From the IMG/VR virus record IMGVR_UViG_3300022910_000004: DNA of 64,000 bases; one strand, given 5' to 3'. The translations under genes were made by a program, and so were the position numbers. The notes under the pieces were generated by a model. The model ran no database searches, was not told the origin of the DNA, and saw only the letters and a program-made list of their open reading frames with translations. Every line of letters begins with the position of its first letter. Position 1 is the stretch's first letter. The stretch comes from a virus (taxonomy: Duplodnaviria > Heunggongvirae > Uroviricota > Caudoviricetes). Of the stretch, positions 3,980-48,560 are shown piece by piece.

Positions 3980-3988
3980 TAACCCTCC

Positions 3989-4301
3989 AAAATATCATAG
4001 TGTTCGGTGGAGCGAACAACTCTTAAAATTCACAAATCAAAATATCTATATCTTTCAATAACTTGAAAAAGTGGCCTTTGTTTTGCTTATATAATAAAGC
4101 AACGCATTATTAGCACATGTAATTATCCCATTTTCCCCCCACAGAAATCAACTCATTTATATCTATTAAGAAATATTCTCAGATAGAAAATATCTATAGG
4201 AAGTACCTAAGTAGCGTCTCTCTGGGCATATCTATGGGCGAGGTGCTGAGCACTCCCCCATCGTGACATAAAAAATAATTCTACAATTCTAAAATATCAT
4301 A
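3989..4301. repeat. four direct copies of AAAATATC(A/T)ATA (iterons), plus partial ATCTATAGG copies out to 4640
   Basis: copies start at 3989, 4039, 4187 and 4291; spacings of 50, 148 and 104 bp are near-integral multiples of 10.4 bp; further partial copies at 4159, 4229 and 4631. Confidence 0.5.
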
Positions 4302-4783
4302 AAGGGCTTATTTAGTTTGGCTTAGTTATTGCTAGTGATTGAGCCTTTGATCATACTATAGTCTATACTTATGATAGTAAATCCTTAGATAAGTAATAAC
4401 TAATTGACAATAAACTAGATATAGTATTAGGGATACTAGATATAGGGCTTAACCAACCCCGAGGCTATAGATGAGCAACACATATGAGTGGTACTAGTAG
4501 ATAAGGCTCTATAGAGCGAGTAAATAGCTATAGGATAATAAGCTCTAGGCCTTGATAACACTAGTTTACAGCCATTTTAAGCTATCTGTATAAGACAGTA
4601 TTAGATTAGGTATTAATGAGCTATAAGACTATCTATAGGAGGTTTAAATAATGGTATCTTATGCTTATTCGACGGCATTACTGGCCTAGTGTGTAGATAG
4701 GTAACAAATAAGGGATATAATAGATAAATACTAAAGTATTTAATAAATAATCGAAAATAAATAGACATTTAGTGAAAATTAGC

Positions 4784-4811
4784 TTGCAAAGGGTAAAATA
4801 GGGCGTATAGT
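4784..4811 (+). promoter_or_regulatory. sigma70-like promoter candidate (TTGCAA-16-TATAGT)
   Basis: -35/-10 hexamers with 16-nt spacer at the right edge of the non-coding region, facing the downstream genes. Confidence 0.3.
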
Positions 4812-4878
4812 AACTACATAAGGTAGTTAATAACAGTAAGTAAACAGCAAGATAACCAGTAACAAGAGATAAGACATC

Positions 4879-5007
4879 ATGAAAAGATATTTATTTAGTT
4901 TGATGGTGATTGGTCTAGTAGCTCATGGGATAGGCTCAGTAGGGGCTAGTACAGTGACTAAGTACAATACCAACGTAGACGCTAAAATTGAACAAGCAAC
5001 CAAATAA
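4879..5007 (+). CDS. small secreted/membrane peptide (42 aa)
   Basis: MKRYLFSLMVIGLVAHGIGSVGAS... signal-peptide-like. Confidence 0.3.
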   Translation: MKRYLFSLMVIGLVAHGIGSVGASTVTKYNTNVDAKIEQATK

Positions 5008-9641: not shown

Positions 9642-9717
9642 GCGCTGTTAGTTTAATGGATAGAACAGGGGATTTCTAATCCCTCGGCGGCGGGTTCGAC
9701 TCCCCCACGGCGTACCA
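9642..9717 (+). tRNA. tRNA-Arg (anticodon UCU)
   Basis: cloverleaf folded by hand: acceptor GCGCTGT/ACGGCGT (two G-U pairs), D arm GTTT/GAAC, anticodon stem GGGGA/TCCCT with loop TTTCTAA (TCT at 9675-9677), T arm GCGGG-TTCGACT-CCCCC (one mismatch), discriminator A and encoded CCA. Confidence 0.8.
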
Positions 9718-11136: not shown

Positions 11137-11339
11137 TTGATATGAAAAATACATACTCCTTTATTATTTGGTTATGTGGAGTTATCGGTAAATTTGTCTG
11201 TGATGTTGGCGAATATATTTTGGTGAAAGTTGTTCCTGTAGTTTTTGTGTTGGCAATAAAGTTAATACTATTTATTGTGATGGTTTTCTTTTGTTCGTTA
11301 TTTCTTATTAAACTATTTGATGTCAGTGAAAAACCTTAG
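11133..11339 (+). CDS. small membrane protein
   Basis: two hydrophobic segments; ATGA overlap. Confidence 0.45.
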   Translation: MIDMKNTYSFIIWLCGVIGKFVCDVGEYILVKVVPVVFVLAIKLILFIVMVFFCSLFLIKLFDVSEKP

Positions 11340-11348
11340 GAGGTTATC

Positions 11349-11699
11349 GTGGATTTAGATACACTTATTAAATTAAAAGAAGTTTTATTGACACTTAAAG
11401 CAGGTCAAATTGGAGACAAATTTTTAGGTATTTGTGGCAATATCCCTAGTAATATTAAGGCTGAGTCATTAAAATATTTTTATTCTACTTGGGATAAATG
11501 GCCAGAATACTCTGGGTATATGGGATATCCTGTAAAGCATGGAGAACATTTACCTGTTAGTGCTTTCTTCTATGTTGAGGACTGTTGGGAAGGGGAATAT
11601 GGAGAAGCTAGATATCGTTTAGTTGATTGGTTACTTGAGCAAATAGATAAGGATTTACAAATCCCATCTAAAGATGCCTCTGAAGCTTTAATATATTAA
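11349..11699 (+). CDS. hypothetical protein
   Basis: GTG start after AGGAGG RBS. Confidence 0.5.
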   Translation: MDLDTLIKLKEVLLTLKAGQIGDKFLGICGNIPSNIKAESLKYFYSTWDKWPEYSGYMGYPVKHGEHLPVSAFFYVEDCWEGEYGEARYRLVDWLLEQIDKDLQIPSKDASEALIY

Positions 11700-11780
11700 G
11701 GTAATACCAAAGCTTAGACTAAACGTAAAATCGCCACAAAGCTTTCCTATGAGCTTTAAACACTATTATAAGGAGTACAC

Positions 11781-11981
11781 ATGCAATCGCCTTTATCAGT
11801 ATTTGCTTTATTCATTAAGCTTGTTATCACTTTCTTATTTTTTATGGCTATTGGTTATTTACTAACAGGCACCATAGAACCAAAAGATTGGAACACTATA
11901 ATGAATGTTGATATAACAATTTTATATTGTTTGTGTACTGTTTATATAATATTTTCACATAAGGAAACAAAATCTAAATAA
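11781..11981 (+). CDS. small membrane protein
   Basis: hydrophobic 66-aa ORF; AGGAG RBS. Confidence 0.4.
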   Translation: MQSPLSVFALFIKLVITFLFFMAIGYLLTGTIEPKDWNTIMNVDITILYCLCTVYIIFSHKETKSK

Positions 11982-12398
11982 TATGTGCTATACTGAATAT
12001 AGATTAGTCACTTAATGACTAGACTGGTTTATAAACAGTCTCGGATAGGAGTTTTCTGGGTAAACCTCTTTTGTACTATCTTAAAGTTCATAAAAGGCTC
12101 GAACAAACTTGGGGAAGTGGGACAAATGTCTCAGAGGTGACAAGGCTATGATGCTGACTAAAGCAGAAGCACCTCTCGGAATACAGGATTAGTATTGCTT
12201 GTATTCTATTCCGCACTTGAGATACAGTGTGCTACATGCAATGTAGAGAATTATACGGCTCCATTAGTATAGATTCTGAGAATTCTTCAATGGTTCCTCT
12301 AAGGCTAGTTTAATCTGGTATGAGGGGCTATAGCGGAAGTCTATTCAGAATTTACTCACCATTAGTATAGACTATAATTAATCCAGTCGGAGGTAAGA
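11982..12398 (+). other. 417-nt non-coding, hairpin-rich region upstream of an HNH endonuclease gene (candidate structured RNA / long leader)
   Basis: no ORF of 60 aa or more; multiple perfect hairpins (TAGTCA/TGACTA, GACTG/CAGTC, GAATACA/TGTATTC, CTACAT/ATGTAG); CCATTAGTATAGA repeated at 12261 and 12359. Confidence 0.3.
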
Positions 12399-12956
12399 GT
12401 GGCTACGTTAACCCTAAGTCAATTCAGTGATAAGTTATTCTCTGGATTCTATGGCAGACCCAAAGATCAATCTCTCATTCATCTAAGAAATAATTTCTTG
12501 GTTATGAAGGGTTCTGTTAATAAAAGTAAAGCTGAGTTAGTTAATAAATATATTGAGTCTTCAATAGAAAAGTCAGAGGATGTTTTGGAAACTAAACAAC
12601 AAAGCGCCCTAGAAAGCTCAGAATCGGATTTTGATCTATTGGTTGCTGGTAAGTTAAGCCAATTAAAATGCTCTGCTGAACGCCGTGGTAAAGAGTTTGA
12701 TTTGACGTTTAATGTAGTTAAGCGTTTAATGAAGCGGAAGACTTGTTATTACACAGGGCTTAAATTCCAAGCCTCTCCAAATCTACATCTAACTATTGAT
12801 CGTGTGGATTTTACGAAAGGGTATGTTATTGGGAATGTTGTAGCCTGTAGTAATTGGGCTAACCAAATGAAGAATCAATTAATCGAGCAAGAGGGTAGTC
12901 CTTTATTAGGTAATCCTAGACTGCTTAAAAGATTTCTTAATAAATTAGGAGAATAA
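12399..12956 (+). CDS. HNH-family (homing-type) endonuclease
   Basis: GTG start after GGAGGT; C-terminal CYYTG...LTIDRVD...GNVVACSNWANQMK HNH-like core. Confidence 0.5.
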   Translation: MATLTLSQFSDKLFSGFYGRPKDQSLIHLRNNFLVMKGSVNKSKAELVNKYIESSIEKSEDVLETKQQSALESSESDFDLLVAGKLSQLKCSAERRGKEFDLTFNVVKRLMKRKTCYYTGLKFQASPNLHLTIDRVDFTKGYVIGNVVACSNWANQMKNQLIEQEGSPLLGNPRLLKRFLNKLGE

Positions 12957-13061
12957 TATGGACGATTGGTATGAAGATGCGTTAGACAATGAATGGGACT
13001 TAGAAGATCTCCTTCCAGAAGATGATCTTTTAGACAATGATTTCGATGAAGGGGAATACTT

Positions 13062-13403
13062 GTGAGATGTCTAATTTTTATTATAACCTTGTTGCTGTTT
13101 TCTTGTTCAGAAAAAGAAGAACCATTTTTAGTATGGTCTAAAGTAAAGATGTATGAAGTAGTGGAGATAAATGAGAGTAAGCATGTTTATGGACTTGTTC
13201 TGAAAGATTTTCAAACAGGCGAGTATTGGCAGGGATACTCCATTGGAAAGTCCTGTCGTCCTCCAATGGGCGTTAGATTAGAATTCATTGAGAGGCGCTA
13301 TAAAACAACCACAGAAGATTGGAGAATACTTGTGGGTGTTGAGGAAATGTGTGAGAGGCTATCACAGGGTAAATATAAACTTGATTGGCAAATGGTGTAT
13401 TAG
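13062..13403 (+). CDS. lipoprotein
   Basis: signal peptide with lipobox LLFSC. Confidence 0.5.
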   Translation: MRCLIFIITLLLFSCSEKEEPFLVWSKVKMYEVVEINESKHVYGLVLKDFQTGEYWQGYSIGKSCRPPMGVRLEFIERRYKTTTEDWRILVGVEEMCERLSQGKYKLDWQMVY

Positions 13404-13612
13404 TGAATACAGTGATTATTAATGGTGTGACTTACATACCAAAAGTAGATAAAGATGTTTTTAGGAGAAATCTTGTCGATCTCCTAAACCGCCTAACCTA
13501 CTACGCTAATGCTCCTTCAGATAATGAGAGAACAAAAGGCATGGCAGATGCCTACTACACTGCTGCAAAAGCGCTAGAGAGTATTTTAGATAACTACGTT
13601 GAAATGAAATAA
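13385..13612 (+). CDS. hypothetical protein (TTG start)
   Basis: 75-aa ORF; first codon is TTG. Confidence 0.4.
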   Translation: MANGVLVNTVIINGVTYIPKVDKDVFRRNLVDLLNRLTYYANAPSDNERTKGMADAYYTAAKALESILDNYVEMK

Positions 13613-21136: not shown

Positions 21137-22858
21137 ATGCCATTAGCACAAACAGATAGTTATAAGCTTTCACACAAAGGGTTTATGAATAAAGGTACAA
21201 CTAAGCTTTATTCAAATATGACCGCCCGTTCTGGCAAACATTTCCCCGTCCTGCAAGATCGTTGGGATGGTAAAGTAGTAGTATTTGGATTTCAAAAGTT
21301 TGTCATTGAATTCCTGATTAATGAGTGGAACAGTAAGTTCTTTCAAATGCCTAAACATAAGGCTATTAAGAAATTCAAACGCCTTGTAGATGCTTACCTT
21401 GGTAAAGATGCTGTTGATATGGCACACTTCGAAGCTTTGCATGATATTGGTTATTTACCTTTGCACATCAAGTCTATTGATGAAGGTAATCGTGTAAATA
21501 TTAAAGTTCCTTTGTGGACTATTACAAATACTCATCCAGATTTTGCATGGTTAGTGAACTATCTCGAAACTGTGATGTCTTGTGAGTGCTGGAAACCAAT
21601 TACCACAGCTACGATTATCTCTGAATATCGTAAACTGATTAATGAATATGCACTAAAGACCACTGGCAGCTTAATGGGCACACAGTTCCAGATTCATGGT
21701 TTTGAATTCCGTGGAATGGCAAATCGTCAAGATGCAGCAAGCTGTGCAGCCGGAATGTGCTTATCTACAAATGGTACAGATACAATTCCAGCTTTAGAAT
21801 TAATTGAAGAGTACTACTTCACTGATATTGAGAAGTACTTTGTGGCAACTTCTGTGCCAGCAAGCGAACACTCTATTGCGTGTCTTGGAACTGCTGTACA
21901 AGGTGAATTAGAATCCTATCGTAAATGGATTACTGTAGACTATCCTACTGGCATTGTAAGCTTGGTAAGCGATACCTACGATTATTGGAAAGTACTAACA
22001 GAGTATCTCCCAATTCTTAAGCCCGATATTCTTGCTCGTCCAGTTAATGAGATTGGTTTGAGTAAAGTAGTTATTCGTCCTGATTCTGGTAACCCTGCGG
22101 ATATTATTTGTGGAGATGTTTTCACAGATTTAACTAAAGACTGTAAAGATTTTGACACTTTCAAACGTTGGGCGTTAGAAATCATTCGGGAAGAAGTGGG
22201 AGATGATACTCCTCATGGAGAGTGTGGTGAATGTAACCCAAACAAAATCTTCAAATGGCAAGATAAGTACTATGATGTACATGCAGAAATTGAATGGAAT
22301 CGTTATGATAAACAATACTATTATATGGAGGACGAACGCATCACTAGTGTGGAAGAAATTGAACTTACACCAGAACAAAAAGGCTCTGTAGAACTCCTCT
22401 GGGAGACCTTTGGAGGCACTGTAACAGAGCAGGGATACAAAGTATTAGACAGTCACATAGGATTGATCTATGGTGATTCTATTACACTTAAAGTGGCTTT
22501 AGATGTAATGGAACGATTAGCAGCCAAAGGATTTGCCTCAACAAACATAGTGTTTGGTGTAGGCAGTTATACAATGCAGTATCTAACTCGTGATAGCTTA
22601 GGTATGGCAGTTAAAGCCACCTATGGCGAAGTTGATGGTGTTGGTTATGAGTTGTTTAAAGATCCAATTACTGATAGCGGTATGAAGAAGTCAGCAAAAG
22701 GATTGTTACGTGTGGAAAAAGAGGGAGATGATTACGTTCTATATGATCAGCAAACTCTAGAGCAAGAGGCTACAGGGGAATTAACTTCTCTGTTTTTGAA
22801 TGGGAAATTGATGAAACAAACTACATTCGAAGAATGTCGTAATCGTCTTTGGAAATAA
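21137..22858 (+). CDS. nadV: nicotinamide phosphoribosyltransferase family protein (NadV/Nampt-like; candidate Namat)
   Basis: 573 aa; type-II PRTase RPDSGNPADI motif; adjacent to Prs-like gene. Confidence 0.75.
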   Translation: MPLAQTDSYKLSHKGFMNKGTTKLYSNMTARSGKHFPVLQDRWDGKVVVFGFQKFVIEFLINEWNSKFFQMPKHKAIKKFKRLVDAYLGKDAVDMAHFEALHDIGYLPLHIKSIDEGNRVNIKVPLWTITNTHPDFAWLVNYLETVMSCECWKPITTATIISEYRKLINEYALKTTGSLMGTQFQIHGFEFRGMANRQDAASCAAGMCLSTNGTDTIPALELIEEYYFTDIEKYFVATSVPASEHSIACLGTAVQGELESYRKWITVDYPTGIVSLVSDTYDYWKVLTEYLPILKPDILARPVNEIGLSKVVIRPDSGNPADIICGDVFTDLTKDCKDFDTFKRWALEIIREEVGDDTPHGECGECNPNKIFKWQDKYYDVHAEIEWNRYDKQYYYMEDERITSVEEIELTPEQKGSVELLWETFGGTVTEQGYKVLDSHIGLIYGDSITLKVALDVMERLAAKGFASTNIVFGVGSYTMQYLTRDSLGMAVKATYGEVDGVGYELFKDPITDSGMKKSAKGLLRVEKEGDDYVLYDQQTLEQEATGELTSLFLNGKLMKQTTFEECRNRLWK

Positions 22859-28190: not shown

Positions 28191-28201
28191 GAAGGTGAGA
28201 T

Positions 28202-29896
28202 ATTAGCTGTATAGAAAAGATAAAGCATGAAGTAGATCATTGTACTTCTGCGAAAGGATTACAGGTCTTTTATGATGATGGTAGAGGTAAATACACTGGT
28301 TATTGTTTCTCTTGTGCAGCCAAAGGATTAGAGGCGTACGTAGAAAACCCTTATGACGAAGGGTATGAGCCAGAACCACCAAAGAAAAAGACTAAGGAAG
28401 AAATTGATGCAGAGATTCGGGAGATTAAAGAGTTAAAACACCCTGAATTTACTTATAGAGGGATTCCTAAAGAATACTTTAAAAAGGCAGGCGTAAGATT
28501 AGCTTATAGTGAGTTTGATGGATTAACTCCAAATTCTTTTAACTTTCCTTACTCTTTAGGGGGAAATCTAAAAGGTTACAAAACAATTTTACTGAATAAA
28601 AAATTGCATTGGTCGGTAGGAGAAATTGTTGGTTGTGATCTTTTTAACTGGGAAGTTGCGAAGAAGAGAGGAACCAAGCGTTTATATGTGACGGAAGGGG
28701 AATGGGATTGTCTTTCCTTGGAGTACATGCTAGACCATACGTTTGGGCAGAATGGAAAGTATAGACATGCTGTTGTCTCTATTCCTCATGGAGCCGGTAG
28801 TGCCGCCCCTACCTTAGGGAGAATGCGTAAGGAAATAGAGGAACTGTTTGATGAAATTGTTTTAGTATTTGACAATGATGAAGCTGGGGTTAATGCGGTT
28901 AAAGAAGTTCAAAAAGTATTGCCAAATGTTCTAGAAGCTCCACATGTCACTGGTGTTAAGGACGCTAATGAGGCATTACAGTCTGGCGATTATAAAAGCT
29001 TTATTGAATTTGTTAAATGGAAAGCTCGTAAACCTCCAATACAAGGTGTGGTTACAGTTAGTCAGGCAATGGAAAGGGGAATTACCAAACCTGAGTCTGG
29101 TTTATCTCATCCTTGGGAAAAATTATCGACCGTAATGTATGGTCAAAGATTTGGGGAGGCTACTTGTGTTGCTGGATGTGTAGGCGGTGGTAAAACAGCC
29201 ATAGCTCATGAATCTAGTGCTCACAATGCAAATTTCCATAAATTGCCAAGCTTCGTCGCTTTGCTGGAAGAAGATAATATCAAAACCTGTTGGAACATTG
29301 CAGCTAAGATAGATTCTATTCCTTATAACAGACCGGAAGTCTTTGAGAAAAACAAAGAACAATACTATGAGACTATGAAGAGCTTGGAAGATAAGATCTT
29401 TATGTGGAATAGTCAAGGGAATTCTAGTTACAGATTTGATTTACCAGAAATACTGAATGCTATTCGATTTAATAATGCAGAGTATGGATGCAAATTTGCT
29501 TATATCGATAACATGACCAGATTAGTGGATACGATGCCAACAGCAGAAGCTAATGAGTTTATCAACAGATACTCAAGTGAAATTGCAAATTTGGCTAGTG
29601 AATTAGATATGCATATTTATGTGCTATCACATTTGAATCCTCCTAAATTTGGTCGAAGTCATGAAGAGGGTGGAGAGGTATTGCCAGCTCAACTTACAGG
29701 AAGTAGGGGTATCATGAGATCGTTCTCTAACATTATAGGATTTGAGAGAAATAAATTTGGAGAGACCAAACACAATTCTTTCTTGTCTCTTATAAAAAAT
29801 AGAGATTATGGTAATGAGCAAAAAATTAAATCTCAGTACAACCCTGACACAGGAAGATTAAAGGAATATGAATGGGAAGGAGAAACTTTATGGTAG
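28202..29896 (+). CDS. bifunctional primase-helicase (T7 gp4-like); N-terminal zinc-binding domain encoded upstream of the first ATG
   Basis: open frame from stop at 28196-28198; HC(x17)CFSC zinc-finger at 28230-28320; Toprim VTEGEWD and VFDNDEAG; Walker A AGCVGGGKTA; no ATG/GTG/TTG before 28604. Confidence 0.8.
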   Translation: MSCIEKIKHEVDHCTSAKGLQVFYDDGRGKYTGYCFSCAAKGLEAYVENPYDEGYEPEPPKKKTKEEIDAEIREIKELKHPEFTYRGIPKEYFKKAGVRLAYSEFDGLTPNSFNFPYSLGGNLKGYKTILLNKKLHWSVGEIVGCDLFNWEVAKKRGTKRLYVTEGEWDCLSLEYMLDHTFGQNGKYRHAVVSIPHGAGSAAPTLGRMRKEIEELFDEIVLVFDNDEAGVNAVKEVQKVLPNVLEAPHVTGVKDANEALQSGDYKSFIEFVKWKARKPPIQGVVTVSQAMERGITKPESGLSHPWEKLSTVMYGQRFGEATCVAGCVGGGKTAIAHESSAHNANFHKLPSFVALLEEDNIKTCWNIAAKIDSIPYNRPEVFEKNKEQYYETMKSLEDKIFMWNSQGNSSYRFDLPEILNAIRFNNAEYGCKFAYIDNMTRLVDTMPTAEANEFINRYSSEIANLASELDMHIYVLSHLNPPKFGRSHEEGGEVLPAQLTGSRGIMRSFSNIIGFERNKFGETKHNSFLSLIKNRDYGNEQKIKSQYNPDTGRLKEYEWEGETLW

Positions 29897-48208: not shown

Positions 48209-48381
48209 ATATTGACAGATTAACATTAGGAGTTCTACTAATATTATCTAGTACTTGGGGAGGGAGTTATCTAACCTCTCTCATATACAAAACTTGGTTA
48301 TTATTTCCTGTGATATTTACTTCTGCAATGATATTTATTGTAGGTCTTATTATTTGTATAACTAAAGAGATTAAATGGTGA
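48205..48381 (+). CDS. small membrane protein (58 aa)
   Basis: two hydrophobic segments; ATGA overlap. Confidence 0.3.
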   Translation: MNIDRLTLGVLLILSSTWGGSYLTSLIYKTWLLFPVIFTSAMIFIVGLIICITKEIKW

Positions 48382-48560
48382 AAGTAGATAAAAATAAAGT
48401 ATTAGTAAAGAAAGTTGCAATGGCGATGAAATATGTTAAGCAAGGATGTCCCTTAAAGGATTTTCTGGAACATGATGAAATCGAGGAAGCATTAAAATTG
48501 CTGGTGGTAACGCACAAGTCTTTAGAAATTTTACAGGGTAAATCTTAATTGGAGATAGAT

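Follow-up and report, generated by a model that had tools for sequence, protein, structure and literature searches.

What does a tightly packed phage genome keep in a stretch of several hundred nucleotides (nt) that encodes no plausible protein? The question is raised by a gap in the viral record IMGVR_UViG_3300022910_000004 (IMG/VR; Caudoviricetes), of which a stretch of 64,000 nt, here called the window, was analysed. The gap spans positions 11982-12398 (417 nt), between the stop codon of an open reading frame (ORF) of 66 amino acids (aa) and the GTG start, at 12399, of a 185-aa ORF with similarity to HNH endonucleases. A preliminary description, made from the letters of the sequence, offered three candidates for this gap, namely a self-splicing intron with a homing endonuclease, a structured leader or riboswitch-like element controlling the nuclease, and an independent non-coding RNA (ncRNA). 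The last of these is supported by covariation, strand asymmetry, a conserved promoter and conservation at the nucleotide level, and we put at about 75% the probability that the gap holds a free-standing gene, on the plus strand, for a structured ncRNA of ~370 nt whose family is not described in Rfam 15. Comparison of the sequences at hand shows this RNA to be conserved far above its neighbours, with its helices kept by compensatory changes across three divergent sequence types.

The non-coding character of the gap, as first described, was confirmed. Only two short ORFs lie in it, one of 41 aa on the plus strand, the start region of which is missing in the related contig L006, and one of 42 aa on the minus strand. 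Because stretches of at least 200 nt without an ORF of at least 60 aa number only six in the 64-kb window, the genome can indeed be called tightly packed. (Other long stretches of this kind, at 3980-4935 (956 nt), 28191-28603 (413 nt) and 48209-48548 (340 nt), have no match to the two covariance models introduced below, R1 and R2.) The four or more perfect stem-loops that had been noted by eye are present as well, at 12005-12021 (TAGTCA/TGACTA), 12022-12040 (GACTG/CAGTC), 12118-12133 (TGGGAC/GTCTCA) and 12232-12246 (CTACAT/ATGTAG), along with a 9-bp stem at 12179-12206, and the G+C fraction rises to 0.40-0.42 at 12000-12300 versus 0.366 for the whole window. Such hairpins by themselves prove little, since the region departs only mildly from expectation in folding energy, and does so on both strands (z = -2.2 for the plus and -2.7 for the minus strand).

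Conservation and covariation of the RNA

To locate relatives of the RNA, we used pattern scans along with look-ups of protein context, and the finds were confirmed by nhmmer. Apart from a twin contig in IMG/VR that is 98.4% identical to the window, contigs from other samples were reached by way of homologues of the 185-aa protein, and the RNA is now recognized in eight other uncultured-phage contigs. The sequences fall into three full-length types, type A (the window, L006 and L245), type B (L132/L133) and type C (L131, L221 and L223), and a variant with the 5' part only, type D (L217). In L006, an equivalent gap lies upstream of a homologue that is 66% identical to the 185-aa protein, and window positions 12041-12371 are 91.6% identical to it in DNA, as against 65-67% for the flanking ORFs. 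The same imbalance is seen between the window and its twin, where the 377 nt of RNA show 1 difference and the 2211 nt of flanking sequence 34. Further afield, L132/L133 and L131 have ORF-free gaps of 560-600 nt upstream of their HNH homologues; nhmmer connects the window with type B at an expect value (E) of 8e-10 and type B with type C at ~1e-5, and pattern scans added L221 and L223 to type C.

Alignment of the divergent types with MAFFT, followed by RNAalifold, misaligned the helices and gave a poor consensus, and for this reason the types were aligned by hand, helix by helix. The structural alignment so obtained comprises 15 helices and 100 base-pair columns in six distinct sequences, with the pairs counted by script. 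Standard pairs make up 99.1%, and 62 of the 100 pairs have changed on both sides; with the 3' partners slid by 1-3 columns, the corresponding figures drop to 39-45% and 8-10. Since a hand alignment leans towards its own structure, covariance models were used as an independent check. Two were built from the window and its twin only, R2 from the 5' domain (12041-12178) and R1 from the 3' domain (12266-12358), with the structure taken from the hand alignment. With filters off, type B is recovered by R2 at E = 3e-15 and by R1 at 3e-9, and type C at 0.03-0.07 and 0.006-0.013, respectively; under default filters, these single-sequence models miss type C. Between them the models recover all three type C sequences; type B and type C hits alike fall at the positions given by the hand alignment, each type C hit being the best outside types A and B. 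In the alignments that the models themselves made, 99.3% of cells pair in the 5' domain (alignment A15, from R2), with 16 of 29 pairs changed on both sides, and 98.2% pair in the 3' domain (A14, from R1), with 18 of 29 so changed; in neither case did any of 500 shuffles reach these values, and slid controls were 37-52% paired.

Is the folded molecule RNA, or might the hairpins be incidental to some element that acts as DNA, such as a replication origin, a packaging site or a recombination hotspot, or to a pseudogene in decay? The hairpins, a direct repeat 98 bp apart and a mosaic early region with cassette exchange could all be accommodated by a DNA-level element. However, pairing is kept through G-U wobble on the plus strand only, and because G-U cells outnumber A-C cells by 50 to 2 in the hand alignment, the molecule that folds is plus-strand RNA. 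The model scores are likewise strongly asymmetric, at 108-120 bits for the plus and 16-21 bits for the minus strand. A decaying pseudogene, on the other hand, would not be 92% conserved with neighbours at 65-67%, and no ORF is common to the types. We consider an explanation of either kind highly implausible.

The RNA gene also appears to carry its own signals (Table 1). An extended -10 promoter, TGCTATACT (TGn followed by TATACT), would place the start of transcription near 12001, and L006 retains TGnTATACT (TGTTATACT) amid diverged flanks. At the equivalent place types B, C and D have TTGACA, a spacer of 16-18 nt and TAnnnT; in every type, a promoter stands directly upstream of the RNA. At the other end, the 3' domain is terminator-like, and in types B and D its stem is followed by a U-run (UUUUGUU or UUUUUU); a simple scan of 11300-13500 for Rho-independent terminators found none.

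Table 1. Positions of the predicted RNA gene, its helices and signals, and the adjoining ORFs in the window
Feature	Position	Strand	Remarks
Upstream ORF	11781-11981		66 aa, membrane-type; own stop codon at 11979-11981
Extended -10 promoter (TGn + TATACT)	11986-11994	+	at end of upstream ORF
RNA gene, type A	12001-12372	+	5' end as predicted from promoter; 3' limit is end of L006/L245 conservation
H1	12005-12010/12016-12021	+	variable 5' hairpin; absent from L006
H2	12022-12026/12036-12040	+	5' hairpin; changes on both sides
5' domain	12041-12178	+	H3-H7, branched
H3	12043-12048/12076-12081	+	inner hairpin; followed by invariant UCUUAAAG
H4	12086-12089/12101-12104	+	
H5	12118-12123/12128-12133	+	
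H6	12134-12139/12170-12175	+	encloses conserved GGCUAUG and H7
H7	12152-12155/12162-12165	+	inside H6
H8	12179-12187/12198-12206	+	8/9 pairs changed on both sides (manual structural alignment)
H9	12212-12217/12226-12231	+	6/7 pairs changed on both sides (manual structural alignment)
H10	12232-12237/12241-12246	+	4/6 pairs changed on both sides (manual structural alignment)
Variable linker	12247-12269	+	
Box 1, CCATTAGTATAGA	12261-12273	+	just 5' of 3' domain, overlapping its outer stem
3' domain, J-K-L	12270-12354	+	long three-tier hairpin, terminator-like
Outer stem J	12270-12280/12344-12354 plus 12285-12288/12336-12339	+	
Stem K	12290-12299/12322-12331	+	10 bp
Stem L	12305-12308/12315-12318	+	
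Sigma-70-like site (TTTACT, 16 nt, TATAAT)	12351-12378	+	before HNH-like gene; this genome only
Box 2, CCATTAGTATAGA	12359-12371	+	last conserved block of type A RNA, at HNH-like gene junction
HNH-like/Srd-like ORF	12399-12956	+	185 aa; GTG start; GGAGGT at 12388-12393

Within the fold, types B, C and D each have an H1 stem of their own around a loop that is conserved (UYUAAC...GACAYU); H8, H9 and H10 form three consecutive hairpins (12179-12246) and a conserved internal loop, UAAGG...UAU, separates K from L. The H4 loop (12090-12100) may make a loop-loop (kissing) contact with the internal loop of H6 (12144-12149), the candidate partners being GGCU/GGCU in type A, AGCAC/GUGCU in type B and GCCA/UGGC in type C, with changes on both sides. 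We leave this contact as a lead, because its register differs among the types and the loops are inconsistently aligned.

The type D sequence (L217:1018-1375) has H1-H4, the conserved H1 loop and UCUUUAAAG in common with types B and C; its remaining ~250 nt differ in sequence, yet form hairpins and close with a clear terminator, and a Thg1-like gene lies downstream. A second ORF-free gap, of ~500 nt, was seen at 5954-6461 of L246, a 54.6-kb phage contig in which an RNA ligase is encoded too. This gap is G+C-rich and well folded (minimum free energy -143 kcal/mol, z = -2.3), has a TTGACA-type promoter before it and no match in Rfam, and is followed by an ORF of 58 aa and by P0013, a more distant homologue of the HNH family; it may be another, unrelated structured RNA adjoining the same protein family. 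Neither the L217 variant nor the L246 gap is claimed as a full member, since the model R3 recovers neither. In the stretch L216:399-640, the type B RNA promoter (ACTTGACAGAAyCAAGGTAGGTG) is still present, and behind it come unrelated sequence (~200 nt) and an additional ORF of 95 aa, with no RNA; a promoter with no RNA behind it indicates that the RNA gene can be lost or replaced.

Wider scans added little. The matches listed for the 14-mer CCGCACTTGAGATA in viral contigs included chance matches, and two of 19 nt (L037 and L051) were rejected, as both fall within a DNA polymerase gene. When the 3' domain was written as a degenerate pattern and run over metagenome, genome and viral collections, the scan returned the known contigs and L223 only; its other 17 metagenome matches are chance by nhmmer, and three genome matches are presumed to be chance. 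So far, then, the RNA family is rare, with nine contigs from one group of uncultured myoviruses.

The HNH-like neighbour and the repeated boxes

Sequence comparison indicates that the RNA and the HNH-like gene are neighbours that evolve separately and form no unit. Between L131 and L132, the HNH cassette has 83% nucleotide identity and the RNA 58%, the reverse of the pattern described above for the window and L006. In L221 and L223, the RNA is followed by unrelated ORFs of 62 and 125 aa with no HNH gene, so that relatives with the RNA spacer but lacking the nuclease gene, for which the preliminary description had suggested looking, do exist and speak against both the intron and the leader readings. 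In L217, four small ORFs stand between the type D RNA and the HNH homologue. The HNH gene, for its part, occurs without the RNA in L007, L135, L216 and L219 and at 79 viral HNH-family loci (nhmmer, model R3), about 85 in all. The genes that flank the RNA differ among the window, L221, L223 and L217, and with flanks so variable between genomes the two sides cannot be exons of a single gene, as the preliminary description had already suspected on seeing that the flanking ORFs do not look like halves of one gene. Separate evolution, together with RNA-only and HNH-only loci, therefore rules out an intron plus homing endonuclease and makes a dedicated leader unlikely.

The arrangement in type A nevertheless deserves attention from the standpoint of a cis-acting leader or attenuator, according to which the RNA would form a long untranslated leader at the 5' end of the downstream gene's message and control that gene through a choice of folds at the 3' hairpin, for example as a terminator/antiterminator or in ligand sensing. 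The HNH-like start codon follows the conserved RNA block by 27-40 nt in type A, with no conserved promoter there. The -10 hexamer of the sigma-70-like site that overlaps the end of the RNA in the window is not kept in L006 or L245, for which reason the function of this site is doubtful; since a good -10 hexamer thus precedes the HNH-like gene in the window only, that gene is probably expressed in type A by read-through from the RNA. The terminator-like 3' domain would also suit a leader, as would a pairing of 12248-12257 with 12266-12276 in the box 1 region that competes with the outer stem of the 3' hairpin, and the presence of GCUAU in two places, the internal loop of H6 and the 3' strand of K, from which an alternative pairing with the 5' strand of K is conceivable. 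However, these competing pairings are found in type A only and without covariation support, no riboswitch or leader family matches, and the downstream gene varies (HNH-like, 62-aa ORF, 125-aa ORF, other small ORFs). In types B and C, moreover, a 130-nt A+T-rich spacer with a separate consensus promoter (TTGATA, 17 nt, TAAGAT) comes between the RNA and the next gene. We regard a leader as unlikely, and the earlier suggestion of one that controls the nuclease is left largely unsupported by the different downstream genes of L221 and L223, the four intervening ORFs of L217 and the separate promoter of types B and C.

The 13-bp box that had been reported twice upstream of the GTG start is an exact repeat. 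The copies lie 98 nt apart, at 12261 and 12359, and are the sole exact copies of CCATTAGTATAGA in the 64-kb window, the second ending 27 nt before the GTG; an exact direct repeat of at least 13 nt arises in 0.24% of 5000 dinucleotide-preserving shuffles of the region. The three type A genomes have both boxes letter for letter, and directly past the ...TATAGAC of box 2 the similarity of the window to L006 and L245 breaks down. Because conservation stops at just this point, box 2 is part of the conserved element. The boxes stand on either side of the 3' hairpin; their repetition is absent from types B and C, and the AUUAG part of box 1 aligns with type B. A role as binding sites for protein, as components of a switch or as the scar of a recombination is conceivable for them. 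The type A RNA has three copies of an octamer (AUUAGUAU / ATTAGTAT), one within the H8 loop (12188-12195) and one in each box (12263-12270 and 12361-12368); the copy in the H8 loop is changed in L006. A reading of the 85 nt between the boxes as an inserted mobile element with a target-site duplication was rejected, since types B and C possess the 3' domain but not the repeat, and the domain is hence ancestral.

The label of HNH endonuclease that the preliminary description gave to the 185-aa ORF fits only in part, being weakly consistent with a beta-beta-alpha metal-finger fold in the predicted structure and doubtful as to activity. In its favour are a match to PHROG 3118 'HNH endonuclease' (2e-26) and weak structural matches. 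An AlphaFold2 (AF2) model with a predicted local distance difference test (pLDDT) score of 83 has a strand-strand-helix unit at residues 131-163, and the best folds in the PDB are the PacI HNH (E = 0.023, probability 1.00, template-modelling (TM) score 0.36-0.46) and the Gme HNH nickase (E = 0.05). Against the label, the protein also matches 'Srd anti-sigma factor' (3e-21) and 'endonuclease VII', and has no match to a Pfam HNH family at E up to 1, to NCBIfam or to a PDB sequence. In place of the Asp-His of HNH enzymes, whose His is the first 'H' and the general base, all 28 aligned relatives have Asp-Arg, with Arg135 of T-I-D-R-V-D invariant in 28/28. The protein thus seems HNH-like in fold, and its catalytic competence is doubtful.

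Could the RNA be the partner of this protein, either guide-like or as a scaffold in the manner of the omega RNA (HEARO) of IscB, or else as its recognition target, with the boxes as the sites? Like HEARO, the window RNA is a few hundred nt long and lies immediately 5' of an HNH-related ORF on the same strand, an arrangement found in the window, L006, L245, L132/L133 and L131; the boxes around the 3' hairpin are conserved, and the closest HNH homologues are those with the RNA upstream. Unlike the IscB system, the window protein of 185 aa has no RuvC or PLMP part, no Pfam domain and an Arg for the catalytic His, no IS200/IS605 ends are seen, and no HEARO model matches. Nor is co-occurrence obligate, given that L221 and L223 have only the RNA of the two and so many loci only the protein, and the two evolve at opposite rates in different genome pairs. 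Several paralogues are present per phage, and chance adjacency is therefore not rare. A functional partnership is in our estimate a long shot, and this applies equally to the specific version in which the type A RNA would work with a degenerate HNH-like protein and the duplicated boxes would be its recognition sites.

The patchy distribution and cassette-like conservation of the HNH-like ORF fit a mobile element. T4-like phages have free-standing homing endonuclease cassettes, the seg and mob genes. Like these, the HNH-like ORF is small, is present or absent among close relatives, is inserted between conserved genes and, in L131 versus L132, is more similar between genomes than its surroundings; unlike them, it has the invariant Arg in place of His, and homing would be suggested by its distribution only. 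Two HNH-like/Srd-like paralogues lie within 2 kb of each other both in L132 (3001-3588 and 4182-4760) and in L134 (118-705 and 2021-2599), and the family appears from such sequences to be expanded in this phage group. The HNH-like ORF shares a domain, by PHROG label, with the T4 protein Srd, which is reported to act as a stimulator of RNase E (Qi et al. 2015, cited in PMC7430671). At 12958-13065 of the window, 2 nt after the HNH-like stop codon, is a very acidic ORF of 35 aa (MDDWYEDALDNEWDLEDLLPEDDLLDNDFDEGEYL) with no family match.

Known RNA families and comparable systems

The preliminary description had proposed a scan with covariance models, and in the window and four relatives none matches the RNA, which counts against both the intron and the leader readings. 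At the gathering score, Rfam 15 finds a single feature in the whole window, a tRNA-Arg (anticodon TCT) at 9642-9717; there is no meaningful match in the region 11600-13100 at E up to 10, and none in the relatives L131, L132, L217 and L006 at E up to 1. These searches of the window and the four relatives included GOLLD, ROOL, OLE, raiA and other large ncRNA models, as well as the known riboswitch and leader classes. Among GenBank phages, megablast and blastn with the region and with types B, C and D found no similar DNA.

Phage SPO1, in which a group I intron of the DNA polymerase gene carries the HNH homing endonuclease I-HmuI, is an example of the arrangement that the preliminary description had in mind. 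The window resembles it in its phage setting, in a structured RNA of similar size (~350 nt would fit a group I core), in the adjacent HNH-family ORF, classically placed beside such an RNA, and in a patchy distribution. In contrast to the SPO1 intron, the window RNA interrupts no gene, since the upstream ORF is complete with its own stop, the flanking ORFs differ among genomes and a promoter lies directly upstream; the HNH-like ORF lies outside the RNA and in none of its loops. Over the scopes just given, there is no match to the group I intron model (RF00028, Intron_gpI) or to group II introns, for which the RNA has only ~370 nt; and no reverse transcriptase is found among the ORFs scanned with Pfam and PHROGs (11349-11699, 11781-11981, 12399-12956, 12958-13065 and 13062-13403). 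All 15 helices are local or nested, and no long-range pairing of the P3/P7 pseudoknot kind was seen by eye, no dedicated pseudoknot search having been made. A self-splicing intron that carries or abuts a homing endonuclease gene has, in our judgement, a negligible likelihood.

The nearest systems in kind are ROOL and GOLLD, with HEARO/omega RNA near by gene arrangement only. ROOL and GOLLD are large 'ornate' ncRNAs of phages and prophages, of unknown function (Kretsch et al. 2025, PMC12286853). The window RNA is like them in being phage-encoded, free-standing, many-helixed and defined by covariation, with no known protein partner and with a tRNA gene nearby, here 2.3 kb upstream (L006 has a tRNA at 619-691, in the equivalent region). 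It differs in its length (~370 nt versus ~580 and >800), in matching neither model, in having no established pseudoknots and in coming from nine contigs of one phage group.

As to that group, the nearest cultured phages by DNA polymerase are Vibrio and Shewanella myoviruses, at ~54% amino-acid identity, and the window also encodes baseplate proteins, ribonucleotide reductase and enzymes of nicotinamide adenine dinucleotide (NAD) salvage. The NAD-salvage genes, for a nicotinamide phosphoribosyltransferase and a ribose-phosphate pyrophosphokinase-like product, lie at 21137-22858. Together with RlaP, Thg1 and RNA ligase genes, they recur in the phage group (in the window and in the downstream regions of L007 and L131), which points to an investment in nucleotide and RNA repair functions.

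Possible roles of the RNA

In the mechanism that we propose for a free-standing RNA gene, host sigma-70 RNA polymerase would transcribe the RNA early in infection, and the 3' hairpin would end or protect the transcript. The RNA would then act in trans as a stable folded molecule, not as a switch for one gene; perhaps it binds proteins as a scaffold or decoy, or forms an assembly made of RNA only. The HNH-like ORF would be a separate selfish or mobile cassette that has repeatedly arrived just downstream of the RNA gene. More tentatively, the RNA may stand for a new class among the large phage RNAs of complex fold, of the same kind as ROOL and GOLLD, performing a biochemical task in its own right and made early from a strong host-type promoter, whether as an RNA-only assembly, a ribonucleoprotein scaffold, a decoy for host nucleases or defence, or a ribozyme; we hold this to be possible, though on balance doubtful.

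Several points weigh against reading the gap as a free-standing RNA gene. Full-length sequences number only six distinct ones, in three clades, so that the covariation counts given above reflect few independent events, and the percentages paired are inflated because the alignments were fitted to the structure. Types A and C have only a weak U-run behind the 3' hairpin, and we infer the ends, abundance and stability of the RNA from sequence. The HNH-like gene lies ~30-40 nt downstream in all three type A genomes, where the RNA may have a role or effect in cis on it. Beyond its probable early, host-type transcription, the data offer no clue to a specific function at the molecular level.

Few bacterial or phage RNAs have more than 12 covariation-supported helices. 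Those that are known, among them RNase P, tmRNA, group I and II introns, OLE, GOLLD, ROOL and HEARO, are ribozymes, guides or unusual assemblies, and the window RNA lies outside the known families. The word 'new' is used here in the sense that no described family matches, and it applies to the family, not to the function. At ~370 nt the RNA is well suited to in vitro transcription, chemical probing and cryo-electron microscopy, its promoter is recognizable, and the three types allow compensatory mutants to be designed. For the phages concerned, a structured RNA gene would be a landing place for a mobile HNH-like cassette, and a pairing of this kind can mislead annotation into calling an intron.

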